Below, piece after piece: positions 17,344-53,638 of a stretch of 64,000 nt of DNA. A program made the position numbers and the translations under genes. The stretch is taken from positions 69,397 through 133,396 of the forward strand of contig JBDTNL010000001.1 in the NCBI GenBank assembly GCA_039933785.1. Direction: 5' to 3'. Within the stretch, counting starts at the first letter, position 1. Every line of letters begins with the position of its first letter. Source of the stretch: Acidobacteriota bacterium. Its GTDB lineage: Bacteria > Acidobacteriota > Thermoanaerobaculia > Multivoradales > JAGPDF01. The notes beneath the pieces are model-generated. The model worked only from the letters and a program-made list of their open reading frames with translations, was not told the origin of the DNA and did no database searches.

Positions 17344-17536
17344 GCACCCCCTGGGTGGAACGTGATGAGTCCAGTCACTGAGGAACCTACACTTGTTTTC
17401 AGGGAGCTCAAGTCTCGTGGCGCCCGTGCATGCCCCGCTCGTACGGGGAAGCTAACGGCTCACGGCAAGGGCACCCACCTAATGCGTTGCAGGTTCTGAA
17501 CGCGACAGGGCTCGCACGAACCACCACAGGGGGTGC
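17344..17536 (+). ncRNA. Candidate structured ncRNA (~193 nt) between zapA and rny; 6S RNA (SsrS)-like closing-stem architecture
   Basis: 5' gcaccccctgggtgg (17344-17358) pairs with 3' ccaccacagggggtgc (17521-17536) as 10 bp + 1-nt bulge + 5 bp. The helix extends imperfectly inward (cgtg/cacg, agtcc/gggct). An internal hairpin ccccg-ctcgta-cgggg is present. No ORF with coding character. Lies immediately 3' of zapA, as ssrS does in E. coli. Confidence 0.4.
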
Positions 17537-20062: not shown

Positions 20063-20947
20063 ATGAACCTGTCGCCCCGCCTGCAAGCCCTGCGCGCCGC
20101 GTCCGGCCGGCTGCCGGTGTCGGTGATCATCACCACGCTCAACGAGGAAGTGAACATCCGCGAGTGCCTGGAGTCGGCGGCGTGGGCGGACGAGATCCTG
20201 CTGGTCGATTCGTTCTCGAGCGATCGCACGCTCCAGATCGCGCGCGAGTTCCAATCGCCGGTGCCGTTCACGATTCTCGAGCGCGAGTATTTCGGCTCGG
20301 CGGCGCAGAAGAACTGGTCGATGGACAGGGTGAAGCACGATTGGGTGTTGATCATCGACGCCGACGAGCGCGTGCCGGAGGACCTGGCGGCCGAGATCCT
20401 GACCATTCTCGGCGCGGCGCCGCCGGTGAACGGCTACTTCATCCGGCGCGAGAATGTCTTCATCGACAAGATCATTCGCCACTCGGGCTGGTCGACCGAC
20501 AAGGTGGTGCGCCTGTTTCGGCGCGATCGCGGGAGGTATCCCAATCGGCGGGTGCACGCCGATCTCGAGATCGACGGCATGGCGCCGACCATGAAGCACG
20601 CCATGCTGCACTACACGTTCCGGTCGTTCGATCAGTACTTCCGCAAGTTCATCAACTACGCCGAGTGGGGCGCCGCGCAGGCGTACCGCGATGGGCGGAA
20701 GGCGGGGTTCTTCGAGGTGGCGCTTCGTCCGCTTTGGCGATTCGTCCGCATGTACGTGCTGCAGCTCGGTTTCCTCGACGGCATCCACGGTTTGGTGGTC
20801 TGCGGCCTGCAGGCGTTCGGCACGTTCCTGAAGTACGCTCGCGTCTGGGAGTACCGCATCCGCGCCAAGCGCGGCGAAGAGATCGTGTTGCCGGCGTTCG
20901 ACGACGACGCCAAGACCTGGCAGAAGCCGGGCGGCGACGCGAGATAG
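20063..20947 (+). CDS. Glycosyltransferase family 2 (GT-A fold)
   Basis: VSVIITTLNEEVNIRECLESAAWADEILLVDSFSSDRTLQIAREF…DWVLIIDADERVPEDLAAEI (DxD). 294 aa. Confidence 0.75.
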   Translation: MNLSPRLQALRAASGRLPVSVIITTLNEEVNIRECLESAAWADEILLVDSFSSDRTLQIAREFQSPVPFTILEREYFGSAAQKNWSMDRVKHDWVLIIDADERVPEDLAAEILTILGAAPPVNGYFIRRENVFIDKIIRHSGWSTDKVVRLFRRDRGRYPNRRVHADLEIDGMAPTMKHAMLHYTFRSFDQYFRKFINYAEWGAAQAYRDGRKAGFFEVALRPLWRFVRMYVLQLGFLDGIHGLVVCGLQAFGTFLKYARVWEYRIRAKRGEEIVLPAFDDDAKTWQKPGGDAR

Positions 20948-21697
20948 TCAGGCCCGAGCCGCGCGCCGGCGCGGACCGTATCGACCGAGCATGCCCTTGC
21001 AGCGGACCCCGAGCACTTCCCAGGCCATGCGGATGGAGTCCGTGATCGGGCTCACCCGGCTGTTGGCGCGGTAGTACCAGTCGATCGGAATCTCGATGAT
21101 GCGATACCCGCGGTGGCGGGCGATGAAGAGGATCTCGACATCGAAGGCCCAGCCCTCGTCGGTCTGCGAGCGGAAGAGATCGAGCGCCGCCTCGCGTCGG
21201 AAGCACTTGAATCCGCATTGCGTGTCCTGCAGGCCCGGCACGGCGAGAACCTTCACCAGCAGATTGAACACGCGACCCATCAGGTGGCGGTAGGCGGGCT
21301 CTTCGAAACGATGCGCTCCGGGAGCCTCACGGCTGCCGATGGCGACGTCGTAAGCACTCGCTTGTGGCGGCAGGAATTTGGCGATCTCCTCGATGGGCAT
21401 CGAGAAGTCGGCGTCGGCGACGAAGACGAACTCGCCCAGCGACTGGAGGACGCCCGTGCGCACAGCGGCGCCCTTGCCTTGGCGAGGCTCGTCGATCACG
21501 CGTAGGAAGGGATGCTCCACGGCGACCGCGAGGCCGATCTCTCGCGTGCGATCCCGACTGTTGTTATTGACCAGCAGGACTTCGCAGGCGAAGGACTGCG
21601 CGCGCACCCAGTCGACGACCTGAGGCAGCGTCTCGGGCAGCCGTTCGCCCTCGTTGTACGCCGGGATGACCAGACTCAGATGTGGCGCTGCGGACAC
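20948..21697 (-). CDS. GT2 polyprenol-phosphate glycosyltransferase (dolichyl-phosphate mannose synthase DPM1-like)
   Basis: MSAAPHLSLVIPAYNEGERLPETLPQVVDWVRAQSFACEVLLVNNNSRDRTREIGLAVAVEHPFLRVIDEPRQGKGAAVRTGVLQSLGEFVFVADADFSMP. 249 aa, soluble, DPM1/PpgS-like. Confidence 0.7.
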   Translation of the reverse strand: MSAAPHLSLVIPAYNEGERLPETLPQVVDWVRAQSFACEVLLVNNNSRDRTREIGLAVAVEHPFLRVIDEPRQGKGAAVRTGVLQSLGEFVFVADADFSMPIEEIAKFLPPQASAYDVAIGSREAPGAHRFEEPAYRHLMGRVFNLLVKVLAVPGLQDTQCGFKCFRREAALDLFRSQTDEGWAFDVEILFIARHRGYRIIEIPIDWYYRANSRVSPITDSIRMAWEVLGVRCKGMLGRYGPRRRAARA

Positions 21698-21706
21698 GCT
21701 TGCGGC

Positions 21707-23551
21707 CTAGATGTAGCCCAGAGACTTGAGCTTTTCGAGCTCTTCCTTGTTCAGCCCGCTCTTGGCGCCGGGTGCGTGCGGACTGGCCCAGAGACCGTCG
21801 TACGTCGGAATGCTGCGCCTCGGATGGGCCGCGAGGAACGCGGGATCGACGATCGGGTCGAGTACCTGTCCGGCGGCGTCCGCGGGGATAGGCAGACCGA
21901 GCAGGTAGAGCACGGTCGGGAAGATGTCGTAGATCGATCCGCTCGCGAGCTTCTCCCCGGCGCGGATAGGGCCGCCGCAGGCAAGGAAAATCCCCGGCGG
22001 CCCGTGGCGATGCTGGGAGTAGTAGCTCTGGTGAAGGATGGTCGGGGAGTGCCCGTGATCGGAGACCACGAGCAGCACGGTCTTCTCCGGTGCCTGATCG
22101 ACCCGTTGGAGGAGCTTGCCGAGGTAGGCATCGAAGCTCTTGTAGCGCTTGGGGATCTCGCCGCCCCATTGCGCCAAGTCGGCGGCGTGTACGTTCAAGA
22201 AGAGCTCGGGCTGGTACCACTTCCAGAACCAGTGCTGCACGCTGTCGGGCTCGTGCGTGTACATGTTGAGGAAGCGCGGCTGCGGACGGTCCGAGAGCAG
22301 CTGCAGCACGGCGGCCGACTGCCACTCGAAGTCGGGCTTCTCCAGGAATGGCTTGATCTCGCGCAGCACATCGTCGGGCTGAACGAAGAGCTTGCTGTCG
22401 GAGAGTTTGGCGCTGCCGGGCTCATGGATGAGCTTGCTGTAGAAGAGATCGGTGCCGTAGGAGACGAAGTAGCCGCCGGGTGTGCTCATGGGCAGCGCCG
22501 GAAACGAGTAGTAAAAGCCATCGACTACGCCGATCGAGATGCCGTAGTGGTCGAGAATCTCCCAGAGCGGTAGAGCGTGCAACTCGCCGCGCGACATCGT
22601 GGTGCGTTCGGCGAGGCCGAAGGGAGCCAGCGCCTCGGCGATTTCCTTGAAGAACGTCCGATGGACGGGGAAAACACCGGCTCCGGCCATGCCGGGCAGC
22701 TGGATACGGTAAAAGTCGAGGACGCCGTGCACTTCCGGGCGCATGCCCGAGAAGATCGAAGCCCAGATCACGGCGGAGTTCGAGTCCTTGATCGTGGGCA
22801 GCGGGCCGCTGGTGCCGCGGCGCATGATCTCGGCGAAGTTCGGCAACTCGCCCTTGTCGATCATGGGTTGCATCACGCGCCAGTCGGCGCCGTCGAGGTC
22901 GACCATCATGACGCTGAGGTCGGTGGCCTCTGGGGTGATCGGGATTGCTGCCGGTCTGACGACCTTGGCTTTGCCTTCTGGAACTCCACGGAGCACCGAA
23001 ACGCCGTGCGCGGCGAGGAACGCGATCAGGACCGCGGTGAAGACGGCGCGAGATGCGCCTCTCACGAGCGCGAAGAGCAGCAGCGTGAGGAGGAGGACGC
23101 CGGCGGCGATGACCAACCCGTAGGCCGCGAGGAACGCGAGCATTCCCCAGACGGAGTGCAGGGTTCCGAAGGGGTAGTGGTCGTAGGTCAGGCCGTGGAG
23201 GAAGAAGAGCTCCCAGAAGATCAGGTTAAATCCCAGGAGACCCCACCAGCGGGGATCGCAGTGTCGCGCGTGCTCGGGGTCGAGCGCGCGGCGCCTGGCC
23301 ACCAACGCGGGGAGGAAGCCGAGGGCGAACATGGCGGCCATCCAGGCCCCGAAGGCGGCGCCGCACCAGAGCCACAGCACCAGGGTGTCGCGGGCGCTGT
23401 CGAGTCGGTTGTGTAGCGCGTGGGCGAGTGAGATGGCGGAGCCATACGTTGCCGCTCCGGTCAGGAAGCCGGAGCGCAGTGTCGAGAGCAATGAGCGATT
23501 GGGCATGTTTGGGTGGCGAAGCCTTGCGGCGGGCCGTGGGCACGATAGCAA
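21707..23551 (-). CDS. Membrane-anchored alkaline-phosphatase-superfamily enzyme, type I phosphodiesterase/nucleotide pyrophosphatase (NPP, PF01663-like) domain with N-terminal multi-TM region
   Basis: ~5 N-terminal hydrophobic helices (…LVLWLWCGAAFGAWMAAMFALGFLPALVA…LTLLLFALV…). Then MMVDLDGADWRVMQPMIDKGELPNFAEIMRRGTSGPLPTIKDSNSAVIWASIFSGMRPEVHGV and …LLVVSDHGHSP. Start may be ATG 23506 rather than 23551. Confidence 0.6.
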   Translation of the reverse strand: MLSCPRPAARLRHPNMPNRSLLSTLRSGFLTGAATYGSAISLAHALHNRLDSARDTLVLWLWCGAAFGAWMAAMFALGFLPALVARRRALDPEHARHCDPRWWGLLGFNLIFWELFFLHGLTYDHYPFGTLHSVWGMLAFLAAYGLVIAAGVLLLTLLLFALVRGASRAVFTAVLIAFLAAHGVSVLRGVPEGKAKVVRPAAIPITPEATDLSVMMVDLDGADWRVMQPMIDKGELPNFAEIMRRGTSGPLPTIKDSNSAVIWASIFSGMRPEVHGVLDFYRIQLPGMAGAGVFPVHRTFFKEIAEALAPFGLAERTTMSRGELHALPLWEILDHYGISIGVVDGFYYSFPALPMSTPGGYFVSYGTDLFYSKLIHEPGSAKLSDSKLFVQPDDVLREIKPFLEKPDFEWQSAAVLQLLSDRPQPRFLNMYTHEPDSVQHWFWKWYQPELFLNVHAADLAQWGGEIPKRYKSFDAYLGKLLQRVDQAPEKTVLLVVSDHGHSPTILHQSYYSQHRHGPPGIFLACGGPIRAGEKLASGSIYDIFPTVLYLLGLPIPADAAGQVLDPIVDPAFLAAHPRRSIPTYDGLWASPHAPGAKSGLNKEELEKLKSLGYI

Positions 23552-23590
23552 GCGGTTTGGTGGGGCTCAAGCGACTAGAATTCCTTTTGA

Positions 23591-24778
23591 ATGCCTCCAG
23601 CGCCTCGCCTTCGGGTTTTGTTGGTCTCCAATACGTTTCCGCCGGCCGATATTTCGGGGGTTGGAACGTTGGTGGCCGAGTTGCTCGGTGGGTTGCGGGC
23701 GGCTGGGCATTCCGCGACGGCGCTGGTTCGGGTGGCGCCGAATGGCGTGGCTTGGGTGATGGCGACGGGGGGGGCGAAGTTGTTGTTTCCGCTCCGCGCG
23801 GCGTTGGCGGTGAGTCACGCTGCGGGGACTGAGCCCTTCGACGTCGTGCACGTGCACGAGTCGGATGGAATCCTGGTCATCCTGCGTCAGCGTCTGGCCC
23901 GGCTCCTTGGGCGGCCGAGCGGGCGGGCTCGGATCGTGGCGACGTTGCAGGTGTCCTATCGCCGGGAGCGGTTGGCGGTTCGGCCGGTTCGCGATGGCGA
24001 ACGGGTCGTTTCGCGGCCGGTTGCGAGTGAGTGGATGTTCAAGGTGTTGCGGGCTCCGTTGCATGCGCTTCTCGGGCGGCTCACGGTCGCGCTCGCCGAT
24101 GCGGTGGTGGCGCCTAGCGAGGCAACTGCGAGGGAGCTCGAGGAGGACTACGGCGCTCGCGGCGTGGTGGTGATTCCGAATGGGATCGCTCTTCCCGGGG
24201 CTGGCGAGGAATCGCCGCGCCGGTCGACGACTGGGGAGACCGTTCTTTTCGTCGGTCGACTACGGACGCGCAAGGCGGTGGCAGTACTTCTCGAGGCTTT
24301 TGCGCGGGTTGGTCGCGAGCGGCCTCTGGCTCGTCTGGTCGTCCTTGGGGACGGCGAACAGCGGGCGGCGCTCGAGGCGCAGTGCGCTCGGCTCGGACTT
24401 GGTGAGCACGTGCTCCTGGCGGGCGCGGTGGCGCGGGCGGAGACGGCCCGTTGGCTGCGGGAGGCCGATGTCTTCTGTTTGCCATCGACCTACGAGGGCT
24501 TTCCTTTGGCGATTCTCGAAGCGATGGCGCAGGCCTTGCCGGTGGTGGCAACGCGCGTCGCAGGCGTGCCCGAGGCGATCGAGGATGGGGCGAGTGGGCT
24601 GCTGGTCGATTCCGAGGATGGCAGCGGCCTCGCTGCGGCGTTGATCGATCTGCTGGGCGATCCGGCGCGGCGCCAAGCGTTCGGCGCCCGCGGGCGGGTG
24701 CTGCTCGGGGAGCGCTTCGCGATCGGCGCTATCTGCGCGCGCTACGTGGAGCTTTTCGGCCGCTTGGCGGCGCGATGA
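23591..24778 (+). CDS. Glycosyltransferase family 4 (GT-B, RfaG-like)
   Basis: …LLVSNTFPPADISGVGT…FDVVHVHESDG… and the C-terminal E-x7-E motif region FCLPSTYEGFPLAILEAMAQALPVVATRVAGVPEAIEDGASGLLVD. Confidence 0.8.
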   Translation: MPPAPRLRVLLVSNTFPPADISGVGTLVAELLGGLRAAGHSATALVRVAPNGVAWVMATGGAKLLFPLRAALAVSHAAGTEPFDVVHVHESDGILVILRQRLARLLGRPSGRARIVATLQVSYRRERLAVRPVRDGERVVSRPVASEWMFKVLRAPLHALLGRLTVALADAVVAPSEATARELEEDYGARGVVVIPNGIALPGAGEESPRRSTTGETVLFVGRLRTRKAVAVLLEAFARVGRERPLARLVVLGDGEQRAALEAQCARLGLGEHVLLAGAVARAETARWLREADVFCLPSTYEGFPLAILEAMAQALPVVATRVAGVPEAIEDGASGLLVDSEDGSGLAAALIDLLGDPARRQAFGARGRVLLGERFAIGAICARYVELFGRLAAR

Positions 24779-26517
24779 ACCTGCCGGCTACGTCCTGGAT
24801 GGAGCGCTTGGGCCGCGTGGTGCTCGGCGGTCTGTTGATGGCGACTTTGGTCGGTGCGCTGCGCTTGGACCGCACACAGCGGGCGCTGGTGGGGGACGAG
24901 GCGACGTTCGCCATGCAGGCGGAGAGTCTCGCGTTCGACTTCGACCTGCGGTACACGCGAGCCGACTACGACCGTTTCGTGGCGACCTGGCAGCGGCCGC
25001 CCGATGGATTGATCCTGCAGACGACCGATGGCGGAAAGACGCTGACCTACGGCAAGCCGGCGCTCTATGCGCTGGCGATCGCGCCGTTCGTTCGCCTCAG
25101 CCCCTTGCGCGGTGCGCAGGTTGGGAACCTGTTGTTCCTGGCGCTCGCGGCGTGGTTGGTGGCGCGTGCGCTGCGGCCGGTGGTTGGAGCCGCGATTCCG
25201 TGGTGGGTTGCCTGCTGGATCTTCGCCTCGGTGAGCTTTGCGTATGTGACGTGGGAGCACGCCGAGGTCTTCCTGCTGGCGGCGACGGCGAGTGGCTTTG
25301 CCTTGGTGTACGGCGTCGGGGAGGACGAGGACCAGCCTGCGCGTGGATTGCCGTGCCGCTTTGCGCTTGCCGGTGCGTTGATCGCAGTGGTCGGAGCGAG
25401 TCGCATTTTCTATCTGGCGCTCTTGGCCCCTCTGTGGCTCGCGATTCCGCGGCCGCGAGTTGGCGCGCGGCGGGCGGCATTGATCGGCGGCGCTCTGCTG
25501 GTCCTGACGATCTCGGGCCTGGGGCGCATCGCGGCGGGTGGAGACTGGAGCGGGTACGGTGCCGAGCGCCGGGGCTTCTATCCACGCACCGGGTATCCGG
25601 AGGTCGACTTTCCTGCGAGTGAGTGGCCGCAGGTGTTGGCGAAGTTGGGCAATACCTCCTGGACGCAAGAGGGTGCCATTTCGTGGAATCGCAGTCCGCG
25701 ACTGTGGGCGTGGGACAGCTGGTACTTCCTAGTCGGGCGCGATATCGGAGTGCTGCCGTACTTCCTCCCCTTGTTGCTGGGAGTGTTCGCGTTTCGTCGA
25801 GATCGTGGGCGCTGGGCGATTCCGCTGGCCGTTCTCCTCGCGATGAGCTGTTTCCTCCTGGTGCGCCCGCACAACTTCTTCGGCGGGGTGGGCGCGATCG
25901 GCGATCGCTATTTCTTGCCGCTGTATCCGGCGCTGTGGTTTCTCGCCGGGCGCGCGGGCAGGGTGCGCTCGGCGATCGCTTGCGCGGTGCTCGCGGCGCC
26001 GTTTTTGTGGACGCTGTGGCGCGCGCCGACGATGTTTCCCGTCGCCGCCAGCGGACGCTACGCCTATGTTTCACCCGCGGCGGAAGCGCTTCTCCCCTAC
26101 GAGACTTCGCTGAGTCACCTCCCGGGGGGCGAGGACGTGGCGCAGAACGGACTCTGGTTTCGTTTCGTGAACGACGCCGTGGGCCGCGAGGCCGAGAGGC
26201 CCTGGCTTCGCGCCGGTTCGACAGGCGAGATTCTGATCGGCAGTCCGGCGCCGCTGGCGGAGGTGCGGATCGATTTTCGACCGGAAGTTCCGGCAACCTT
26301 GGAGGTCTCTGGCGCCCGGCTGGTGTCTGTTCCGGGTGGTCCGGCGGGCGAATTCGTAGTGGCGTTCGACCGGGCTTCCGCGCGGCATCCCATGTGGTGG
26401 ACGGCCGACGACTACTACTTGTATCGACTACGACTCAAGGTTCCACCGACCGCGCGCCTCGCGGCGCAAGTGCCGTTCAGGATTTCGCCGGCAATCGGCG
26501 ACCCGGCTCCTAATTGA
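24775..26517 (+). CDS. Polytopic membrane glycosyltransferase, GT-C fold (PMT/ArnT-like) with C-terminal periplasmic domain
   Basis: ATGA overlap with the upstream GT4. ~11 predicted TM helices. Early extracytoplasmic loop carries an acidic motif (…RALVGDEATFAMQAE…) like the DE/DD motif of GT-C enzymes. ~170-aa soluble C-terminal domain. Confidence 0.55.
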   Translation: MNLPATSWMERLGRVVLGGLLMATLVGALRLDRTQRALVGDEATFAMQAESLAFDFDLRYTRADYDRFVATWQRPPDGLILQTTDGGKTLTYGKPALYALAIAPFVRLSPLRGAQVGNLLFLALAAWLVARALRPVVGAAIPWWVACWIFASVSFAYVTWEHAEVFLLAATASGFALVYGVGEDEDQPARGLPCRFALAGALIAVVGASRIFYLALLAPLWLAIPRPRVGARRAALIGGALLVLTISGLGRIAAGGDWSGYGAERRGFYPRTGYPEVDFPASEWPQVLAKLGNTSWTQEGAISWNRSPRLWAWDSWYFLVGRDIGVLPYFLPLLLGVFAFRRDRGRWAIPLAVLLAMSCFLLVRPHNFFGGVGAIGDRYFLPLYPALWFLAGRAGRVRSAIACAVLAAPFLWTLWRAPTMFPVAASGRYAYVSPAAEALLPYETSLSHLPGGEDVAQNGLWFRFVNDAVGREAERPWLRAGSTGEILIGSPAPLAEVRIDFRPEVPATLEVSGARLVSVPGGPAGEFVVAFDRASARHPMWWTADDYYLYRLRLKVPPTARLAAQVPFRISPAIGDPAPN

Positions 26518-27742
26518 AGGCCGGCAGTACCGCGAGATACGCCGCGCGATAGCGCCCGACGACGGCATCCCAGGTCAGTTCCGCCACCGCTTTGGATCGA
26601 CCGCGCTCGCCCATGCGACGGCGCTCCTCCGGGTTGGCGATCAGTCGATCGAGCGCGACCAGTAGGTCGGAATTCGAACCTTCGGCAACGAGGAGTCCGC
26701 TCCTCTCGTGCTCGACCGCGAGCGGCACGCCGGAGATTCCGCTCGCGACCACGGGCAGGCCGCTTGCCATGGCTTCGAGGATGACATTGGGCAGGCCGTC
26801 GACGTTGCCCTTGGCGTCGTGCACGGCGGGAAGGACGAAGATGTCCGCGGCGCGGTACAGGTCCGGCAGGGTGTCGCGCTGCACCGAGCCGGGGAAGTGC
26901 ACTCTGTCGCTCCAGGTCTTGGTGGCTTCGCGGAACTCGGGTTCTCGATCGCCGCCCCCAGCCAGAACGAGGTGCGCGTCGAGATGTTTTGCGAACAGAG
27001 CGGGCAACGCTTCGATGAGAACCTGAAATCCCTTCTTGGTCGCCATGCGTCCGACGCCGAGCAGGAGCGGTGCGTTCGCGGGTACCCCGAGACGTTGGCG
27101 CCAGAGCTCGCGCCGCGCGGCGTCCGGTGAGAATGCCTCGGTGTCGACGCCGTAGGGAATGGTTTGCGCTCCACGGGCCGCCAGACTCTCCGGAGCCAGG
27201 CGCTGCACTCGCTGGACGAGCTCGGGAGAGCAACCGGTGAGCAGGGCGGCCCGGCGCAGGGCTCGCCTCGAGACAGCGCGGAGCAGGGGTTTCTCGGCCA
27301 GGAAGACGTCGGAACCGTGGAGGCCGATCGCCAAGGGAACGCAACCTGTGGCGCCAGCGACGCTCACCGCGTTCGGCACGATCCAGTGCGCCTGCACGAG
27401 ATCGGGGCGGCGCTCACGGATTGCACGCTTGACGGCTCGGCGCGCCGACCAGGCGTAGAGTGGGGCGACCGCGCCCGCCTTGCCCTTGATGGTTTCGTCC
27501 TTTTGCAGGCTGCGGCCATAGCCGAGGACTTCCCAGCTCTCGGGCGCGTAGCGAAACGTTTCGAGCTCGACGCCGTGCTCGCTCCAGCGTTCCCTGAGCC
27601 CGCGCGCGTGCGGCGCGAGCACGCGCACGCGGTCGCCGCGGCGCACGAGGCCGCGCGCCAGGTCGCGAATGAAGGGGCCGGCGGTGTCGTCTTCGCTCTG
27701 CGGGAAGGTCTGGGTGAGGAAGAGCAAGTCGAGTGGCCGCAT
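26510..27742 (-). CDS. Glycosyltransferase family 4 (GT-B)
   Basis: MRPLDLLFLTQTFPQSEDDTAGPFIRDLA… and …DIFVLPAVHDAKGNVDGLPNVILEAMASGLPVVASGISGVPLAVEHERSGLLVAEG. Confidence 0.8.
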   Translation of the reverse strand: MRPLDLLFLTQTFPQSEDDTAGPFIRDLARGLVRRGDRVRVLAPHARGLRERWSEHGVELETFRYAPESWEVLGYGRSLQKDETIKGKAGAVAPLYAWSARRAVKRAIRERRPDLVQAHWIVPNAVSVAGATGCVPLAIGLHGSDVFLAEKPLLRAVSRRALRRAALLTGCSPELVQRVQRLAPESLAARGAQTIPYGVDTEAFSPDAARRELWRQRLGVPANAPLLLGVGRMATKKGFQVLIEALPALFAKHLDAHLVLAGGGDREPEFREATKTWSDRVHFPGSVQRDTLPDLYRAADIFVLPAVHDAKGNVDGLPNVILEAMASGLPVVASGISGVPLAVEHERSGLLVAEGSNSDLLVALDRLIANPEERRRMGERGRSKAVAELTWDAVVGRYRAAYLAVLPAFN

Positions 27743-27745
27743 GGA

Positions 27746-28585
27746 TCAGAGCGGCAAGAGGCGGTAGGGCGGGGTGGCAAGCTCTGGCCCGCGTCGGGCA
27801 ACCAGCAGGTTGTTGCCCCACGCGTTCTTCCACAGCGGCACGGAGCGCAGCATTTCCCGATAAAGCCCGCGCCACCCCTTCGGTTCGGCGCGGTGCGGGA
27901 AGGTGGTGTGCTCGATGACCTCCATGCCGAGTCCGCGGAGGTAGCGCGCCACCTGCTGAGACTGCGCGATGTGGACGGCGTCGGCGTCGGGGAGGTAGCC
28001 CTCGGTGAGCACGCTCGGATTGCGCACGGTGTCGAATCGATGGCCGCCGGCGAGGGCGCCGCGAACCTGTCGCCAGGTCCGGCGTATCGTCACTTCCAGT
28101 CGCCGGCTCCGCGGCAGGCTGGGTGGGTACTCGTAGGGGAGATCCCAGGTGGAGCCGATGATCATGAGCAATCCGCCCGGGCGGACGATGCGCGCGGCCT
28201 CGCGGAGCGTCTTGCCGGGGTCGTGAAAGTGCTCGAGAGCGTAGGTCGAGAGCACGGCGTCGAAGGCGCCGTCGCCAAATGGTAGCGCTTCACTATCGCC
28301 GCGCACGCGGTCGCCGGGGCGCTTGGCTTCGGCGGCCATGAGCAAGCCCACGAGCGAAACATCGAGGCCGGTGTAGCGGCAGCCGACGGGCAGCCACAGG
28401 GCGTTCTCGCACGAACCGCTGCCGAGATCGAGCACGCGCTCGCCGCCGCGCAGGTGCGCGAGCATGCGTTGGCGCTCGGGAGACGCCGCCGGATTCGCGG
28501 CGGCGGCCATGGCGTAGTACTCGCGGCTTTGGTTCCAGAAGGCGGCAAGATCTTGCTTGTTGGTGGGGCTGGACATGCGCTGCAA
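27746..28585 (-). CDS. Class I SAM-dependent methyltransferase
   Basis: …GERVLDLGSGSCENALWLPVGCRYTGLDVS…FDAVLSTYALEHFHDP…RPGGLLMI (motifs I, II, post-II). Confidence 0.7.
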   Translation of the reverse strand: MQRMSSPTNKQDLAAFWNQSREYYAMAAAANPAASPERQRMLAHLRGGERVLDLGSGSCENALWLPVGCRYTGLDVSLVGLLMAAEAKRPGDRVRGDSEALPFGDGAFDAVLSTYALEHFHDPGKTLREAARIVRPGGLLMIIGSTWDLPYEYPPSLPRSRRLEVTIRRTWRQVRGALAGGHRFDTVRNPSVLTEGYLPDADAVHIAQSQQVARYLRGLGMEVIEHTTFPHRAEPKGWRGLYREMLRSVPLWKNAWGNNLLVARRGPELATPPYRLLPL

Positions 28586-28605
28586 AGCTTAACAGTCGCT
28601 TCGCG

Positions 28606-30228
28606 TTGTATCGTTTGCAGGTCTTGTCTGCCTCTGTGGATCGCCGCATTCGGAGCCTGTCTTGGGCGAGCGCCGCGGTCTGTCTGGTCACTCGCTTGCC
28701 GTTCGTCGCCCGGCGTTTGTGGGATCACGATTCTGTTCAGTTTGCGCTTGGGGTCGAGCACTACGACCTGGCAGCGCATCAGCCGCATCCGCCTGGGTAC
28801 CCTTTGTACATCGCGCTGCTGAAGGTCTTGGCCTTGGTGGGCGTCTCGCCGGGGAGTGGCATGGTGGCGCTCACGTTGATCGCGAGTGCAGGTGGCGCGG
28901 CGTGCATGCCGTTGTTGGTGGCTCGGCTGCTGGAGTCGCCAGTGAGCGAAGAGGAGTCGGTGTTCGGATCGGCGCTCCTTGCGGCGGCGCTGTTCGTGTT
29001 CAATCCCTTGCTGTGGTTCTACGGCGAGCTGCCGTTGCTCTATGCGGTCGAGGGCGCGTTGACCGTCGTGCTCGCCTGGGCGGCGGCTCGGATGGGGCTT
29101 GGCACCGGGGCCGTCGTTTGGGCTGCCGTGTTGTTGGCCCTTGCGGGTGGTCTGCGGCCGTCGAGCCTCGTCCTTCTCGCGCCGATGTTCTTGTTTGGCC
29201 TCTGGCGCACCTGGCGAAAAGGCGCAGTGAAGCCCGCTGGAATTCTGCTCGCCGCGGCGGTGGGAGGCGGGCTGGTCCTCGCCTGGGCTCTGCCGCTGTT
29301 CGCGGCCGCGGGTGGGTACGCAGCTTGGAAGCACATCAACGACGAGCACTTCCGAACGCTTCTGCCCACCACGTCGGTCCTCTACGGCGCGGGTATCGGA
29401 GCCCTGCGCCACAACGCGTTGGTGATCGCGAAGTGGGCCGTTCAGGGTTTGTTTCCCGGAGCGGTCGTGCTTCTCTGGTGGATGGTTCGGGCGCCCAGTC
29501 GCGTGCGTGAGGGCGTTGGTTCGCTCGCCAATCCATTCGTGAATCGTCTCGGCTTCGTTCTCGCGTGGGGTCTACCGGCGATCCTTTTCTTTGCCTTGTT
29601 CCACATCACCAAGGCCGGTTACACGCTGGTGTACTTGCCGGCGCTGCTGGTCGGGCTGGTGCTTTTTGTGGCGCCGTTCAAACCCTCGTGGAAGAGCGCC
29701 GGGGCGGTCGCGTTGATCGGAGCCGCGCTCTACTTCGTGGGCCCGAGTCGCGTTGCGGGAGAGCCGTGGTGGCAGATCCCTTGGCGCGACGAGTTCCACG
29801 CCAGCGAGATCCGTGGGTTCGAGAGCGAGCTCGATTCGGTGCGGGCGATTGCGGGGCGGTTCTCGCCGGCGAGCACGGTGCTGGTCACGGTCGAGCTCGC
29901 GGGCGGCGGTGACGGCGGCGCGAGCGGTTTTCTTTATTCGTGGCATCGGCATTTGCAGTGGTACTTGCCGGCATTCACCGTGCTGTCGCTCGCCCCGGAG
30001 CAGCACCTGGCGTTGCGCATGCGCGGGCACTCTCCGTTCGAGACCGTGGGGCAGCGGATCGAGGTGCCCGCCGGCACCGACCGCCTGGTGTTCGTGCTGG
30101 CGGCGCCGCCGGACTCGCGGTTCGTGTTACCGCCGGGCGAGGCGCTGTTTCGCGGTGAGCGCTTCTACGTCTGGAGCGCGCCGCTGCCGGCCGATGGGCG
30201 ACTGGGGCCCTTCGAGTTGGTCCCCTAA
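28606..30228 (+). CDS. DUF2723 / TMEM260-like polytopic membrane protein (GT-C-fold glycosyltransferase-like)
   Basis: …RLWDHDSVQFALGVEHYDLAAHQPHPPGYPLYIALLKV… The HPPGYPL motif and multi-TM topology are characteristic of DUF2723/TMEM260-type protein O-mannosyltransferase-like proteins. ~12 TM helices plus a C-terminal soluble domain. Confidence 0.55.
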   Translation: MYRLQVLSASVDRRIRSLSWASAAVCLVTRLPFVARRLWDHDSVQFALGVEHYDLAAHQPHPPGYPLYIALLKVLALVGVSPGSGMVALTLIASAGGAACMPLLVARLLESPVSEEESVFGSALLAAALFVFNPLLWFYGELPLLYAVEGALTVVLAWAAARMGLGTGAVVWAAVLLALAGGLRPSSLVLLAPMFLFGLWRTWRKGAVKPAGILLAAAVGGGLVLAWALPLFAAAGGYAAWKHINDEHFRTLLPTTSVLYGAGIGALRHNALVIAKWAVQGLFPGAVVLLWWMVRAPSRVREGVGSLANPFVNRLGFVLAWGLPAILFFALFHITKAGYTLVYLPALLVGLVLFVAPFKPSWKSAGAVALIGAALYFVGPSRVAGEPWWQIPWRDEFHASEIRGFESELDSVRAIAGRFSPASTVLVTVELAGGGDGGASGFLYSWHRHLQWYLPAFTVLSLAPEQHLALRMRGHSPFETVGQRIEVPAGTDRLVFVLAAPPDSRFVLPPGEALFRGERFYVWSAPLPADGRLGPFELVP

Positions 30229-30240
30229 CTCGCGTCGCAC

Positions 30241-31821
30241 TCAGGGCACGGTTCGGGTCCCGGGCTTTGGTGGCTCCAGGGTCACGCGCCACGTCGTGAC
30301 TCCGGCGGCGCGTGAGACCAGCTCGAGTCCGGGTGGCGGCGCGCCCTCGCCGAGCAGCGCTCGCGGGCGGTCGCGCAGATCGATCGCGTCGGCGACCAGG
30401 AACGCCACTCGCCGTTTGCGCAGGGTTTCGATGAGCGTGTCGAGGTAGAGCGCCGGCATTGCGATTTGCTCGCCGAAGGCGTCAGGAATCGCGAGATAGG
30501 AGTGAGCGAGGTAGCGCTCGAGAAACGGTGACGTTCCCGCGAGACCCTGGCCGGGCGGAAGCTGGCGCTCCAGCCCCTGGAGAGCCGCGACGTCGGCGTA
30601 AGGATGCAGCTCGATGAACGCGGGCAGGCGGAAGACCGCGGTTTTGACTGCCAGCACGGCGACCAGCGCCGCGGCCACCGCGGCGAGCACGCGCCGGCGG
30701 GGGAGATCGAGGTCGAGACTGAGCGCGCCGGCCGCGGTGCAAGCGGCGGCCGCGGGCAGCAAGATCAGGAGAAAACGCCCCCAGGCAAAGAACGCTGTTG
30801 CAACGCCGAACGTGAAGAGAGCGAGCGTCGCGAGCAGCCAGATCGCTGGGCGAGAATGCCGCCGCACACAGAGCGCCGCACCGGCGGCCGCGGCGAGGAC
30901 GTGGAGCGGTGTGCCGAGCAGCTGAGCGAGGCCCCCGGCGATCAAGCGCCAAAGCTCGCTTCCGGCGCCCGCGATGACCGCGCCGGGCTCGCTGCGCAGG
31001 ATCTGACCGAAGCTTCCGCCAGCGGGAATCGCGGCCAGCTTCGACCAGTCCGGGTAGCCGTGCAGCTTCCACAGCAAGTTCTTCCAGTTCTCGTCGTAGA
31101 GGGCGCTGCCGAACAGGTGAGCGCGCAGGATCCAATGCGGAGTCAGTACCGCTGCGGCGAGCAGTGCGGCCGCAGCGAGATGGCTGGTCCTTCGGAGCTC
31201 CCTGCCCCCACCGCGCTCACTGCGAGCGCTCAACCACCAAGCCGCAAGCAGGCCGGGAAGGATGAGTACCGCGTTCCCTCGCGTACATGCGGCGGCGCCG
31301 TATGCGAGTCCGGCGCAGAGCGCGGCCGTGGTGCTTGGGCGCTCCAGGTAGGCGAGCCCGGCGAGCAGCGCCGCTCCAGCCAAGGCGGCGAAAGGCATGT
31401 CGGTGGTGACGTGCTGGCCGAGGATCCAGGTGCTGGGATTCGCGGCCACCAAGGCCATGGCCAATGCGCCCGCGAGCCCGCCGTGAGAGTCACCAGCGAG
31501 CCGCCGACCGAAGGCGAAGGCGAGCCATGCCAGCGCCGCCGCCGACAGGTTGCTTAGCAGGCGCGCCGTGCCGAAGGTATCGCCGGTGAGTCGCCCGAGC
31601 GCCGCGATCGCGTAGGGATAGAGCGGCGGCCGAAAGGCGTCGACGGGCGCGTTGCCGGCGAGGATCTGATCGGCCTGCGCTACATAACCATCGCGCTCGG
31701 CGGTACCTGCTTCCTCGACCCAGTGGAACCTGGCACCGAAGATCGCGAGACCGAGAAAGAGCGCCAACGCAGCGAGAGCGGCGAGGGCGGCAGGTCGATC
31801 CTGGCGAAGGGCGAGCAGCAT
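30241..31821 (-). CDS. Polytopic membrane glycosyltransferase, GT-C fold (GT39/GT83 PMT_2/ArnT-like)
   Basis: MLLALRQDRPAALAALAALALFLGLAIFGARFHWVEEAGTAERDGYVAQADQIL…PPLYPYAIAAL… (acidic loop motif), followed by ~11 TM helices and a C-terminal soluble domain. Confidence 0.6.
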   Translation of the reverse strand: MLLALRQDRPAALAALAALALFLGLAIFGARFHWVEEAGTAERDGYVAQADQILAGNAPVDAFRPPLYPYAIAALGRLTGDTFGTARLLSNLSAAALAWLAFAFGRRLAGDSHGGLAGALAMALVAANPSTWILGQHVTTDMPFAALAGAALLAGLAYLERPSTTAALCAGLAYGAAACTRGNAVLILPGLLAAWWLSARSERGGGRELRRTSHLAAAALLAAAVLTPHWILRAHLFGSALYDENWKNLLWKLHGYPDWSKLAAIPAGGSFGQILRSEPGAVIAGAGSELWRLIAGGLAQLLGTPLHVLAAAAGAALCVRRHSRPAIWLLATLALFTFGVATAFFAWGRFLLILLPAAAACTAAGALSLDLDLPRRRVLAAVAAALVAVLAVKTAVFRLPAFIELHPYADVAALQGLERQLPPGQGLAGTSPFLERYLAHSYLAIPDAFGEQIAMPALYLDTLIETLRKRRVAFLVADAIDLRDRPRALLGEGAPPPGLELVSRAAGVTTWRVTLEPPKPGTRTVP

Positions 31822-31842
31822 GGAGGTGAAGCGTAGCCGAGG

Positions 31843-34089
31843 TCAGTCACCGAGGTAGCCGAGCGCCTTCAGCCGGCTGCGCTCCTCGGCGTCGAGCACC
31901 GGCTCCTGCGCGGCGTCGGCAAGCTCGGGCGAGCCGGCGGACATCCAGCGTAGAAGCTCCGCACGCAGCCACGCCGCATCGATGTTGGGCTCGCCGGCGA
32001 GGTTGGTAAGCTCCTCGGGATCGGCGGCGAGATCGAACACGAACTCGGGATCGCGCACGTGGCCGGCGCCGCCGCCCATGCCCCATTGCAGTCCCGAACG
32101 CGGCGCCAGCGCGACCTTCAGCGTGTGCCAGCGGGCGGCGAAGATGCCGCCGCGCACGGCCGATGCCGCGGCGAAGCGCGGCCTCTCGTCTTCCGCGGCG
32201 GGGCGCGGCGCGAGGAGCGAGTGTCCCGAGCTGCCGGCCGGCGGCGTCGCGTTGGCGAGGTCGAGCAAGGTGGCGAATAGGTCCAAGGTATCGGTGGGCT
32301 TCTCGACGCGCTGCGGAGCGATCCGTCCCGGCGACCACAGCACGAGCGGGATGTGGAGCATCTCTTCGTAGAGCGTGTAGCCGTGCAGGACTCCGCCGTG
32401 CTCGAAGAGCTCCTCGCCGTGATCGGCGGTGACCGCGACGACCACCTCTCCCGGCGCGCGATTGCGCGTCGCCTCCTCGATCAGACCCCCGAGCTCTCGA
32501 TCGGCATAGGCGAGCGATGCGGCATAGAGGCCCTTCACGCGCTCGCGATCGGCAGGCGTTGCTTGTTTGGTTCCGCGGTCAAGGGCGCGCAGGGTGTTGG
32601 TATCGCCCTTGATGCGCGAAGCGATGCCCGCGGTGAAGAGCCGCTCGAGGTCCGGCGGCGGAAAGTACGGATTGTGCGGATGGATGACGTGGACGTAAAG
32701 AAACCCGCGATCTCCCGGGCCCAGGGAGTGAATCCATTCGATCGCCGCGCGCCCTGCGCGAGCCGCGTTGTCGTTGAAGACGGGTTCGCGATCGGTGGGG
32801 GGGAACTTGACTCCCGGCGCGTCGAAGTCGAAGCCGCGCACCATTCCATAGGTGGGGCTTACGTTCTGATTGCCGGAGACGATCGCCGTGCGGTAGCCGG
32901 CGCCGTGCATGAGCTCGGCGAGGGTCGGCAGTTCAGCGGGCAGCATGGATCCGCCGCCGGCGCGCCAGGTTCGTCCGCTGAACAAGCTCTTGGTCGACGG
33001 CAGCGTGTTCGGGGCGACACTGTGGTGAACGGTGAACGTGAGGCCCTCGCGCGCCAGGCGATCGATCGTGGGAGAACGCACCGTCCGGAGCGGGTCGTTG
33101 CCTGCACCTTGCAACCGCAGATGACCCACGCGGTCGGCACGCAGTGCATCCAGCAGATAGACCACGATCAAGCGAGGAGGCTGCATCTCGGTGGCAGTGC
33201 CGGCCGGCTGCGCCGGCTCGGCCCGGTCTGCCGACACCGCCGGCTCCGCAGACCGAGCGGCGTTCTCGATATGGAGAGCGCGCCACCGCGCCGGAGGGCC
33301 TTGGCCGCGCGCCAGCAGGCGGACGCGGACCGCGCCGTCGGCGGGCAGTGCCAACGTCAGGTCGAGCGTCGCCGCTCGACCGGGAGTCCAGGCGAAGCGC
33401 GCCTGCTCGGCGCCGTGGGCGTCGTCCACGCTGAGCACGAAGCGCTGTCCGGGCTGGGCGCCTTTGGGCGGCACGAACGAGCCGCGCAGGGTCTTCTCTC
33501 CGCCGTCCGCGGGCCGCGCGAACAGCTCGACCAGGGAATCGCCACTCTGCAGGAGGTCCTCGCCTTCGAGTCGAGCCTCGCCTGCGGGCAGCGAGGACGA
33601 GAGGCCGGCACCCGAGACCGCGACCTCGCCCTCGAGGCGCAGGTCGATCGGTACTCGGCCGAGCGGCAGATCCGCCGGCAGGGGCACTCGCAGCGGATCG
33701 CTGAGCGCGATCGCGGGCAGCTCGCGACCACCGCCGCGTCCACCGATGCGTACGGTCGCATGGCGCGGATCGCCGGGCATGACGCCTTCGAGATCGAGCA
33801 GCAGCTCGCGCGACCCACCGCCAAGGTCGACGATCTCGAGCCGCGACCAGTCGCGGGTCTGCGCATAGAGCACGCGTTTGCCGTCGCGCCAGCCACGCCA
33901 GCCGCTGAGAAATCGATTGCCCGCGAGATCGGGCGGCGGCGCCAGGCGCCGGGTTTCGACCAGGAGCTCGAACGGTGGATCGCCGTGCCACAGCAGATCG
34001 TGCGGCGCCGGGGGAGGCGCCAGCGCTCGGCACCCTAGAGCGCCGAGCGCCAGGATCGCGAGGCCGGCCTTTGCTTCGTGGAGCGCCAT
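31843..34089 (-). CDS. Secreted sulfatase-family (alkaline-phosphatase superfamily) enzyme with ~330-aa N-terminal domain of unknown function
   Basis: Signal peptide MALHEAKAGLAILALGALGCRALA. The N-terminal beta-rich region has no recognisable motif. C-terminal half: …PPRLIVVYLLDALRADRVGHL…RSPTIDRLAREGLTFTVHHSVAPNTLPSTKSLFSGRTW…VVAVTADHGEELFEHGGVLHGYTLYEEMLHIPLVLW. Confidence 0.65.
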   Translation of the reverse strand: MALHEAKAGLAILALGALGCRALAPPPAPHDLLWHGDPPFELLVETRRLAPPPDLAGNRFLSGWRGWRDGKRVLYAQTRDWSRLEIVDLGGGSRELLLDLEGVMPGDPRHATVRIGGRGGGRELPAIALSDPLRVPLPADLPLGRVPIDLRLEGEVAVSGAGLSSSLPAGEARLEGEDLLQSGDSLVELFARPADGGEKTLRGSFVPPKGAQPGQRFVLSVDDAHGAEQARFAWTPGRAATLDLTLALPADGAVRVRLLARGQGPPARWRALHIENAARSAEPAVSADRAEPAQPAGTATEMQPPRLIVVYLLDALRADRVGHLRLQGAGNDPLRTVRSPTIDRLAREGLTFTVHHSVAPNTLPSTKSLFSGRTWRAGGGSMLPAELPTLAELMHGAGYRTAIVSGNQNVSPTYGMVRGFDFDAPGVKFPPTDREPVFNDNAARAGRAAIEWIHSLGPGDRGFLYVHVIHPHNPYFPPPDLERLFTAGIASRIKGDTNTLRALDRGTKQATPADRERVKGLYAASLAYADRELGGLIEEATRNRAPGEVVVAVTADHGEELFEHGGVLHGYTLYEEMLHIPLVLWSPGRIAPQRVEKPTDTLDLFATLLDLANATPPAGSSGHSLLAPRPAAEDERPRFAAASAVRGGIFAARWHTLKVALAPRSGLQWGMGGGAGHVRDPEFVFDLAADPEELTNLAGEPNIDAAWLRAELLRWMSAGSPELADAAQEPVLDAEERSRLKALGYLGD

Positions 34090-36631: not shown

Positions 36632-36789
36632 GGAGCCTCCTGAGTAATGAGTACGGGCCGGCGAGAAAAGGGTTACCGGAAGGGCTCGGCTTTCTCTAGT
36701 CGCCGTTTGCCCCCTGGTTCTCGGCTCCGCTAGTCTTGGGCCTGCCGGACACCCCGCTCGATCGCTGACTAGCCGCAAAGGATTGCTTT

Positions 36790-38109: not shown

Positions 38110-38126
38110 GCGCCGAGGAAATCAAG

Positions 38127-38681
38127 ATGCTGAGCTCCCTGCTGGTTGCAGTTCTTCTCGCGGCAACCGCCGCCCCGGCGACAAAAGATCCATGCGGTGA
38201 CGCGGCGACGGTCAGTCAGGGCTACAGGTCCCTCAGCGGCCGGGTGGTCGAAGTGACGAGCGGCGACAGCATTCGCGTGCAGATGGACGAGAAGAGCCCG
38301 TACCGCGACCCTTCGCTCACCGGCGTACAGGCGTTCCGGCTCGTGGCCATCGAGGCGCCCAGCGCCGACCAGGAGCTCGGCAAGCGCTCGCAGCAAAGAC
38401 TGAGCGAGCGGCTGGTCGGAAAAGTAGTCAACCTGGGCATGAGCCCGGTCCAGAAGGAAGGAACCCCCCGCAACGTGCTGGTGGCAGGCCCCGACGGGGC
38501 ACTCGCCGGTGAGAACGAGGGCCAGCTCGAAGCCGGTCTCGCGCGTGTGGTCGAACAGGGTCCCTACGACGTCGATGGGTACCTGCGCTGCACCTTCGAG
38601 GCCGCTCAGGCGCGGGCTCGCAAGGCGGGGCTGGGCATCTGGATGGCCACGGCGCCCGCGGCTCGAAACAATCACCGATAG
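38127..38681 (+). CDS. Secreted staphylococcal-nuclease (SNase/thermonuclease)-like protein
   Basis: Signal peptide MLSSLLVAVLLAATAAPA. Then …GRVVEVTSGDSIRVQMD…FRLVAIEAPSADQELGKRSQQRLSERLVGKVVNL…RNVLVAGPDGALAGENEGQLEAGLARVVEQG…ARARKAGLGIW, the SNase OB-fold pattern. It is the tail of track ORF 36783..38681. Confidence 0.5.
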   Translation: MLSSLLVAVLLAATAAPATKDPCGDAATVSQGYRSLSGRVVEVTSGDSIRVQMDEKSPYRDPSLTGVQAFRLVAIEAPSADQELGKRSQQRLSERLVGKVVNLGMSPVQKEGTPRNVLVAGPDGALAGENEGQLEAGLARVVEQGPYDVDGYLRCTFEAAQARARKAGLGIWMATAPAARNNHR

Positions 38682-38725
38682 CGACCCTCGATGGGCGACC
38701 GAGGAGCCGCCTCCGTACACCGGAT

Positions 38726-53628: not shown

Positions 53629-53638
53629 ACAAGCGCTC

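Follow-up and report, generated by a model that had tools for sequence, protein, structure and literature searches.

A candidate locus for lipopolysaccharide assembly and periplasmic decoration in a Thermoanaerobaculia-like acidobacterium

Introduction

Membrane glycosyltransferases (GTs) of the GT-C fold that are fed with polyprenyl-phosphate-linked sugars provide a known route of lipid A and core decoration in lipopolysaccharide (LPS), as in ArnT, RgtA/B and FlmK, which are described alongside EptA/B and PagL (PMC4402001). Charging polyprenyl phosphate with a sugar, flipping it, and transferring the sugar outside the cytoplasm is an established scheme of periplasmic glycan and O-antigen modification (PMC11127046). 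Here we analyze a run of ten glycan-related genes at positions 20063-34089 of a 64,000-nucleotide stretch of Acidobacteriota contig JBDTNL010000001.1 (assembly GCA_039933785.1), the whole of which is referred to below as the window. We put at about even the likelihood that the run is a composite envelope-glycan locus of an uncultured Thermoanaerobaculia-like acidobacterium, serving both the assembly of LPS (lipid A-core and attached glycan) and its periplasmic decoration. The locus is a patchwork of separately conserved modules that combines known enzyme types in a known logic, and is not a new kind of system. A literature search returned nothing on these genes or on the envelope glycans of Thermoanaerobaculia, so that the description of the locus as undescribed, given in an earlier note on this DNA, still holds.

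Results

The span is occupied by ten genes in alternating transcription units, rather than the eleven counted in the earlier note, and all ten open reading frames (ORFs) were found at the coordinates given below. The G+C content of the window is 62-71%, and G+C by codon position, which is high at third positions (GC3), selects one frame per locus; the selected frames are the ORFs read earlier. All intergenic gaps in the span are 90 bp or less, and ten glycan-related genes in a row with such short gaps lie far beyond chance. The genes, numbered g1 to g10, and the two that follow them, g11 and g12, are listed here with the evidence for each; the Pfam assignments of g1-g4 and g6-g10 all exceed gathering thresholds, with matches listed to E 0.01.

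20063..20947, forward: g1, cytoplasmic GT2 (Pfam Glycos_transf_2)
20948..21697, reverse: g2, soluble polyprenyl-phosphate hexose synthase-like GT2 of the DPM1/ArnC/GtrB type (Pfam GT2, PDB matches)
21707..23551, reverse: g3, membrane-anchored alkaline-phosphatase-superfamily enzyme with a predicted periplasmic domain of the nucleotide pyrophosphatase/phosphodiesterase (NPP) fold (Pfam Phosphodiest, structural model)
23591..24778, forward: g4, GT4 of the GT-B fold, coupled to g5 (Pfam Glycos_transf_1, Glyco_transf_4)
24775..26517, forward: g5, predicted GT-C-fold membrane glycosyltransferase without a Pfam model (fold comparison)
26510..27742, reverse: g6, second GT4 (Pfam Glycos_transf_1, Glyco_transf_4)
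27746..28585, reverse: g7, class I S-adenosylmethionine-dependent methyltransferase (Pfam Methyltransf_11)
28606..30228, forward: g8, DUF2723/TMEM260-like GT-C (Pfam PF11028)
30241..31821, reverse: g9, PMT_2 (ArnT/PMT-like) GT-C (Pfam PMT_2)
31843..34089, reverse: g10, periplasmic sulfatase-fold lipoprotein with Thr at the formylglycine position (Pfam Sulfatase PF00884)
34166..36778, reverse: g11, ADOP-family duplicated MacB/FtsX permease (NCBIfam TIGR03434, Pfam)
36790..38109, forward: g12, amine-oxidase-type FAD oxidoreductase (Pfam Amino_oxidase)

The enzyme classes proposed in the earlier note (GT2, DPM1-like GT2, NPP-type enzyme with several transmembrane (TM) helices, two GT4s, methyltransferase, TMEM260-like and PMT_2) were recovered by Pfam above threshold, with g2 placed through its PDB matches. 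Reading forward, g1 begins 18 bp 3' of ymdB and is followed by a reverse unit of g3 then g2 (9 bp gap) and a forward unit of g4 then g5, in which the TGA stop of g4 overlaps the ATG of g5; this ATGA coupling, also proposed earlier, is present in the sequence. A second reverse unit holds g7 then g6 (3 bp gap), and g8 lies forward between it and a third reverse unit of g10 then g9 (21 bp gap), which may begin with g11 (76 bp from g10). The couplings g3-g2, g4-g5, g7-g6 and g10-g9 are operon-like. A scan for promoters and terminators gave counts equal to shuffle expectation.

Homologous loci on related contigs (L-numbers below) were gathered by searches with the cluster proteins; scanning a genome collection with a single protein gave 4 loci, and an alignment-based metagenome scan was far more productive. 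All named relatives are metagenome-assembled genomes of Thermoanaerobaculia, Holophagales or unclassified Acidobacteriota. Locus L096, found through a 53% identical g3 homolog, is the orthologous chromosomal region, with the order infC, rpmI, rplT, pheS, pheT, zapB, zapA, rny (88% identity), ymdB (77%), g1 (77%, directly 3' of rny-ymdB), PagL, g2 (60%), g3 (53%) and a divergent g4 (72%). The gene between g1 and g2 encodes PagL (PF09411), a member of the lipid A 3-O-deacylase family. In L004 and L006 a five-gene set adjoins the block, and its best NCBIfam matches are ArnB (412 bits), ArnC (361), the ArnA formyltransferase (269), ArnD (233) and ArnT (~100); all of these fall below the equivalog cut-offs, and the set is coherent. 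Because PagL lies inside the L096 locus and the Arn-like set adjoins the block in L004 and L006, we favour LPS as the target. This context points to LPS rather than to the protein O-mannosylation or lipoarabinomannan (LAM)-like lipoglycan assembly proposed in the earlier note.

Compared with the Gtr-type (GtrA/GtrB/Gtr*) and polyprenyl-phosphoribose/MATE/GT136 systems (PMC11127046), the locus shares the logic of charge, flip and transfer and has a GtrB-related cytoplasmic GT2 beside GT-Cs that carry an acidic motif after the first TM helix (TM1), but it holds no flippase gene, combines three GT-Cs of three families with one synthase, and encodes a g2 without the C-terminal TM helices of GtrB and ArnC. 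It also interleaves two GT4s, a GT2, a methyltransferase and two alkaline-phosphatase-superfamily enzymes, and no O-antigen backbone locus lies nearby. With ArnT-type decoration of lipid A and the inner core (ArnT with ArnC, Rhizobium RgtA/RgtB, Francisella FlmK, EptA/EptB and PagL; PMC4402001) it has in common a PMT_2 GT-C, a polyprenyl-phosphate sugar synthase and alkaline-phosphatase-superfamily enzymes, and relatives carry the Arn-like set or PagL in or adjoining the same block. The window differs in having no ArnA, ArnB or ArnD, in a g9 without a match to the ArnT model, in a g3 whose catalytic domain is NPP-type rather than sulfatase-type, in a g10 without a membrane domain, and in an acceptor that is a predicted one.

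As PDB sequence searches with g5, g8 and g9 gave no match (for g5, at E 10) and those with g3 gave distant matches only, fold comparison was required. g5 has no Pfam match at E 0.01 and reaches 37 bits against a cut-off of 200 for NCBIfam NF047440; judged by its structural model, it is a GT-C-fold protein with a multi-pass membrane core and a C-terminal periplasmic beta-sandwich, and among its fold matches ALG12 and ArnT score above PIG-M and PimE. Directly after a helix at residues 8-30, G40-D41-E42 is invariant in 53 sequences and corresponds to the acidic motif of the first extracytoplasmic loop. The claim of three GT-C enzymes in the span is thus upheld, through fold evidence for g5 and Pfam for g8 and g9; the Pfam check put forward for all three succeeded with g8 and g9, and its failure with g5 is outweighed by the fold evidence. 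The g5 family comprises 1401 representative clusters at E <= 1e-3, of which 470 remain at E <= 1e-30; those members that carry a name are all acidobacterial, and the start of its genes always overlaps an upstream GT-B gene, as in translational coupling. In our view it is a candidate for a new GT-C family, one that Pfam does not cover and that is always coupled to a GT-B enzyme. A 761-aa paralog of this family (~30% identity, with the same D-E motif region) occurs near g5 homologs in L096 (2064-4349, reverse), L039, L052, L059 and L061, and is accompanied by a sulfatase-fold gene of the Thr type described below in L039, L052, L061 and L096.

g8 passes PF11028, the TMEM260-like N-terminal GT-C domain, at 35.4 bits against a cut-off of 24.2, has at least 10 hydrophobic segments and probably starts at 28636; across 45 sequences, W-D-H-D-S after TM1 and the motif HPHPPGYP do not vary. 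It has no match to a TPR family in Pfam, its C-terminal ~140 aa are without assignment, and a weak match to PIG-U (19 bits) lies below the cut-off. g9 passes PMT_2 (47 bits, cut-off 26.1), carries acidic residues after TM1 and has a 62% identical ortholog at the same position in L091; it has no match to MIR or PMT_4TMC (Pfam, E 0.01), to the NCBIfam Pmt model or, at E 0.01, to the NCBIfam ArnT model. Both proteins resemble the eukaryotic TMEM260 and protein O-mannosyltransferase (PMT) enzymes (PMC10214176) in the domain models that they pass and in the acidic residues after TM1, but g8 is without TPR repeats and g9 without MIR and PMT_4TMC, and the gene neighbourhood favours lipid-linked glycans over proteins. 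From their enzyme class, the donor of g5, g8 and g9 would be a polyprenyl-phosphate-linked sugar.

In g3, which probably starts at the ATG at 23506 (NCBI's own call gives 599 aa), Phosphodiest PF01663 covers residues 215-504 at 75 bits, behind N-terminal TM helices, while PF00884 reaches only 18 bits against a cut-off of 25. By sequence the protein is remote from solved structures, and even a profile finds only distant alkaline-phosphatase-superfamily segments in the PDB. In its AlphaFold2 model (pLDDT 88.3), six N-terminal helices lie within residues 4-173 and are followed by an alpha/beta domain; the best Foldseek matches are ENPP1, ENPP3 and the Xanthomonas NPP (E ~1e-10), and the alignment with full-length MCR-1 (9nww) spans 627 columns. 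On the strength of these helices, the ENPP/NPP matches and the full-length alignment to MCR-1, the model of g3 has an EptA/LtaS-like architecture with an NPP-like catalytic domain. The residues D205, S242, S244, D421, H425, D483 and H484 do not vary, consistent with an intact bimetal site in which they would serve as ligands, with Ser likely at the nucleophile position. Like EptA/MCR-1, LtaS, OpgB and BcsG, g3 places an N-terminal helical membrane domain before a periplasmic alkaline-phosphatase-superfamily domain; it differs from them in having a PF01663 rather than PF00884 catalytic domain and Ser as the likely nucleophile. Homologs ~50% identical to g3 (L094, L095, 8288-16440) stand in the order sigma factor, BTAD, g3, sugar nucleotidyltransferase, C-methyltransferase, RmlC-like epimerase and DUF4910, without g2, which suggests that membrane NPP-fold enzymes of this type are generally tied to activated-sugar genes.

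g10 matches Sulfatase PF00884 (134 bits) over residues 350-655 of a 790-aa ORF, and its N-terminal ~300 aa have no Pfam or NCBIfam match. Its T-L-P-S-T aligns to the S-S-P-S-R or S-T-P-S-R (S/C-x-P-S-R) of solved sulfatases, with Thr in the formylglycine place, and the motif C/S-x-P-x-R of formylglycine-dependent sulfatases is not present. As this Thr, the Pro and the signal-peptide residue Cys20 are invariant in 3 homologs, g10 would be a periplasmic lipoprotein with a Thr nucleophile. In the alkaline-phosphatase superfamily a Thr nucleophile goes with phosphoester chemistry, as in EptA, LtaS and NPP, and by this analogy g10 points to phosphoester chemistry and not to a true sulfatase. The earlier description of a secreted sulfatase-fold enzyme with a novel N-terminal domain thus stands for the fold and for the unmatched ~300 aa; in the sulfatase motif, Thr replaces Cys/Ser. 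g10 shares the position of the Thr nucleophile with the EptA/LtaS group but differs in being a lipoprotein without a TM domain, so that it is equally likely to be a hydrolase or a transferase. At the start of the window, 1-1845 and 1791-4076 (both reverse) encode two further sulfatase-fold lipoproteins with T-L-P-S-H at the nucleophile position, at least one of them with C-terminal TPR repeats, bringing the Thr-type "sulfatases" in 64 kb to three. A common C-terminal motif, L-(K/R)-(A/S)-L-G-Y-(I/L/V), is found in g3 (near 21707), in g10 (near 31843) and in a 449-aa protein of L096 (6227-7576), despite their different superfamily branches.

Among the cytoplasmic enzymes, g1 (Glycos_transf_2, 68.6 bits) has no TM segment; its overall sequence pattern may resemble that of the WaaE/KdtX family of LPS-core GT2s, which we take as a lead only. 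g2 (GT2, 85 bits) likewise has no TM segment, and its closest solved relatives by sequence are the Pyrococcus dolichyl-phosphate mannose (DPM) synthase 5mlz (E 1e-16), ArnC (3e-13) and GtrB (9e-8). Its best NCBIfam matches (dolichyl-phosphate hexose transferase, AglJ and ArnC) are all far below the curated equivalog cut-offs (e.g. 62.7 against 375 bits), and the C-terminal TM anchors are not present, as is also the case for soluble DPM1/Ppm1-type enzymes. g2 is best described as polyprenyl-phosphate-sugar-synthase-like, and in the window as in L004, L006 and L096 it is the gene that directly follows g3. The GT4s score 139 and 52 bits (g4) and 120 and 59 bits (g6) for Glycos_transf_1 and Glyco_transf_4, respectively, with g6 orthologs 74% identical in L004 and 63% in L096. 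g7 (Methyltransf_11, 74 bits), which has a 79% identical ortholog adjoining that of g6 in L004/L005, is probably a sugar O-methyltransferase.

The order g2-g7 is kept at 70-79% identity in L004/L012 (contig WBZN01000927), and g2-g5 at the same identity in L006, which ends after g5. Beyond g4, L096 holds a GDSL protein, the 449-aa protein, which is of the Thr-type sulfatase fold, a g5 homolog (46%) that is far more diverged than its neighbours, the 761-aa g5-like GT-C, g6 (63%), a hexapeptide acyltransferase and a methyltransferase; its PagL, GDSL and Hexapep genes have no counterpart in the window. As the orthologous region keeps the block with changed content, g1-g7 form a persistent locus of variable content beside rny-ymdB. 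Separately, g8-g12 are syntenic by themselves in L091 (59-89% identity), which begins at g8; L092 retains g8 and a g10-like gene, and L093 g8 alone. L004 and L006 end before any g8-like gene, and L096 has no g8, g9 or g10 ortholog within 20 kb. Pairs of a GT-C gene and a Thr-type sulfatase-fold gene recur in L039, L052, L096, L091 and L092.

Among 47 tabulated g5-family loci of at least 9 kb, other cluster genes form a block only in L004, L012 and L006; a few of the remaining loci have one weak or partial match each. The usual context of the family is a non-orthologous "long" GT4 (25% identical to g4) overlapping the GT-C start, with a NudL-like NUDIX gene after it and lnt-prfB upstream (long GT4 in 45 loci, NUDIX in 47, lnt in 29). 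Orthology of g4 to this long GT4 was ruled out, as identity is only 25% over 145 aa; both clades preserve the start-stop overlap of GT4 and GT-C, even with GT4s that are not orthologous (g5-family loci L001-L003, L007-L011 and L013-L090). A GDP-mannose hydrolase assignment for the NUDIX protein was rejected, since it is closest to the CoA pyrophosphatase NudL (103 bits, cut-off 134). In most relatives the families of g1-g7 and g8-g12 sit in unrelated places, and because the synteny patterns of g5, g3 and g8-g12 are independent, the window joins families that are each conserved in the class but usually dispersed. The gene-neighbourhood comparison proposed in the earlier note thus does not yield one conserved glycosylation system: the locus is not one coherent unit and consists of at least two modules, g1-g7 and g8-g12, which are separate in relatives.

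Downstream of the span, g11 scores 639 bits for TIGR03434 (cut-off 622) and contains two copies each of MacB_PCD and FtsX. It shares the strand of g10-g9, and L091 has the same order; g11 is possibly co-transcribed with g10-g9, and its functional membership is uncertain. It is the sole transporter found among the scanned window ORFs, has no adjacent ATPase gene and is not of the Wzm/Wzt type. Among these ORFs, from which a few short ones (e.g. 48419-48871, 53113-53992 and 61388-61927) were left out, there is no Pfam match to Wzx, Wzy, Wzz, WaaL or Wzm/Wzt. The absence of Wzx, Wzy, Wzz and WaaL claimed in the earlier note is borne out, and that of an ABC exporter only in part, as no Wzm/Wzt was found but the MacB-type permease g11 lies adjacent and is syntenic in L091. 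The neighbouring g12 (Amino_oxidase over residues 13-436; PRK07208-like, 188 bits; 89% identity in L091) had been taken for a UDP-galactopyranose mutase (UGM); with 36 bits against a cut-off of 304 for TIGR00031 and no GLF domain, it is not a UGM, and there is consequently no evidence for galactofuranose. The PIG-L-like deacetylase that follows g12 in L091 is not in the window, where a 184-aa secreted-protein ORF stands instead (38127-38681, forward); this ORF looks real (GC3 0.80, signal peptide), and an overlapping 257-aa ORF (37947-38720, reverse) without a Pfam match is probably spurious. Further on, a short ORF (39775-40242, forward) covers no more than the N-terminal part (positions 3-109 of 238) of the profile for the AbiEii type IV toxin nucleotidyltransferase and is possibly a truncated toxin gene.

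Upstream, the span is preceded by thrS, infC, rplT, pheS, pheT, a beta-eliminating lyase gene, 6S RNA, rny and ymdB. The 6S RNA (17345-17536, forward; Rfam RF00013, 53 bits, gathering score 46) lies directly upstream of rny, a position held by zapB-zapA in L096. A tandem tRNA-Val pair (8690-8766 and 8790-8866, forward; anticodons GAC and CAC) lies upstream of thrS, and the Rfam gathering score reports the first only.

Discussion

From the observed gene calls, folds, conserved catalytic-type motifs, operon-like couplings and synteny pattern, we infer a scheme in which the donor sugar, the LPS acceptor, every reaction and a target shared by g1-g7 and g8-g12 are predictions. On the cytoplasmic face, g1, g4 and g6 would extend a lipid-linked glycan from nucleotide sugars, g7 would methylate a sugar of this glycan, and g2 would load a hexose onto polyprenyl phosphate. 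A flippase encoded outside the span would carry the lipid-linked sugar across the membrane, where g5, g8 and g9 may each move the sugar made by g2, or other polyprenyl-phosphate-linked sugars, to different acceptor positions. g3 may add or remove a phosphodiester-linked substituent, such as a phospholipid head group, and the same glycoconjugate may be the substrate of g10, acting as a phosphoesterase or phosphotransferase in the periplasm. The recurrent pairing of GT-C and Thr-type sulfatase-fold genes suggests that phosphoester and glycosyl chemistry are coupled on a single acceptor; by analogy with Rhizobium lipid A, we speculate that a phosphate could be removed or replaced before glycosylation. 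The variable gene content and fast-diverging GT-C resemble loci of surface-glycan diversity.

Several observations weigh against this scheme. No ORF of 20063-38109 matches a flippase family of the GtrA, SMR, MATE or Wzx type, and the window contains no LPS-specific gene (lpx, kdt, waa, msbA, lpt, PagL or Arn); the set of ArnA, ArnB, ArnC, ArnD and ArnT is seen only adjoining the block in L004 and L006. The link to LPS comes from neighbours in three related contigs, with Arn-like matches below cut-offs, and we know of no biochemical or structural record of LPS from Thermoanaerobaculia. The g5 family stands without other cluster genes in more than 40 loci, and as the families of g3 and g8, too, are usually found in other surroundings, the co-localisation could be one of juxtaposed separate pathways. 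Finally, the TMEM260-like and PMT_2 families take in protein O-mannosyltransferases.

Juxtaposition of this kind is possible, though we hold it only tentatively: two or three unrelated pathways would lie side by side, with g1-g7 making one glycoconjugate, g8-g12 serving a different purpose, such as the modification of proteins or lipoproteins or the remodelling of the envelope, and g5 keeping the housekeeping role that it has elsewhere, so that there would be no single 14-kb system. It agrees with the synteny of g8-g12 alone in L091 and of g8 with a g10-like gene in L092, where no g1-g7 gene is visible (L091 begins at g8), with the ends of L004 and L006 and the g8-g10-free surroundings of the g1-g7 homologs in L096, and with the dominant GT4(long)-g5-NUDIX context after lnt-prfB. 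It has to contend with two blocks only ~20-60 bp apart that consist purely of envelope-glycan enzyme classes needing the same kind of donor, with g2 as the sole polyprenyl-phosphate sugar synthase of the span for three GT-Cs, and with GT-C and Thr-type sulfatase-fold pairs in both kinds of locus. The two explanations are not mutually exclusive. We consider it unlikely that the locus glycosylates proteins, with g2 making polyprenyl-phosphate-mannose and g9, g8 and perhaps g5 modifying Ser/Thr of secreted proteins or lipoproteins in the periplasm, as in actinobacterial Ppm1/Pmt. The Pfam family names of g8 and g9 suggest such O-mannosylation, human TMEM260 being a protein O-mannosyltransferase (PMC10214176), as do the proximity of g2 to DPM synthase and the position of the usual g5-family locus two genes after lnt, which encodes a lipoprotein N-acyltransferase; prfB, however, stands between lnt and the GT4-g5 pair. 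Neither g9, without the MIR and PMT_4TMC of GT39 PMTs, nor g8, without the TPR domain of TMEM260, has the full make-up of these enzymes, PMT_2 also spans ArnT-like lipid A transferases, and the neighbours in relatives are PagL and Arn-like genes. Moreover, the presence of two GT4s, a GT2 and a methyltransferase implies that an oligosaccharide is assembled on a lipid, not that single sugars are transferred.

A glycolipid resembling the phosphatidylinositol mannosides (PIM) or glycosylphosphatidylinositol (GPI) is very unlikely. In such a pathway, cytoplasmic GT4s would glycosylate a phospholipid or diacylglycerol anchor, which would be flipped and extended by GT-Cs from polyprenyl-phosphate-sugar, and g3 would attach a phospho-head group in the manner of PIG-N/O/G on GPI. 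The gene set mirrors PimA/PimB', PimE and Ppm1 on the one hand and PIG-A, PIG-M/V/B, DPM1 and PIG-N on the other, sharing with mycobacterial PIM, lipomannan and LAM synthesis and with the eukaryotic GPI core pathway its GT4s, several GT-Cs and a DPM-synthase-like enzyme. g3 belongs to PF01663, a family that also includes the GPI ethanolamine-phosphate transferases, g8 has its sub-threshold PIG-U match, and the g5 model resembles PIG-M and PimE. These two are nonetheless outscored by ALG12 and ArnT, the window holds no inositol or phosphatidylinositol genes, and the GT4 matches to MshA/PimA-type models are non-specific and fall far short of the cut-offs. In addition, the TM helices of PIG-N are C-terminal, so that the topology of g3, with N-terminal helices as in EptA, is inverted relative to it, and the host is diderm, with relatives that have lipid A genes and an LPS-related context. 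Fainter still is the prospect that the GT4-GT-C pair, g2 and g3 make a lipid-anchored glycan by GPI/PIM logic, through phospholipid priming by the GT4, extension by the GT-C and PIG-N-like head-group addition; if true, a diderm phylum would have its own bacterial equivalent of the GPI core pathway, and the g5 family, for which Pfam has no model, would supply the mannosyltransferase.

The leads from this locus overturn no current concept and would not surprise a specialist. They point out a sizeable GT-C family without a Pfam model, that of g5, as a lead for CAZy and Pfam curation and for enzymology, and two unusual alkaline-phosphatase-superfamily forms in glycan loci, namely an EptA-like architecture with a predicted NPP-fold domain and the Thr-type sulfatase-fold lipoproteins. 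For Thermoanaerobaculia, a widespread class of soil and sediment with almost no cultured members, the locus provides a concrete candidate gene set for the decoration of LPS or of the envelope.

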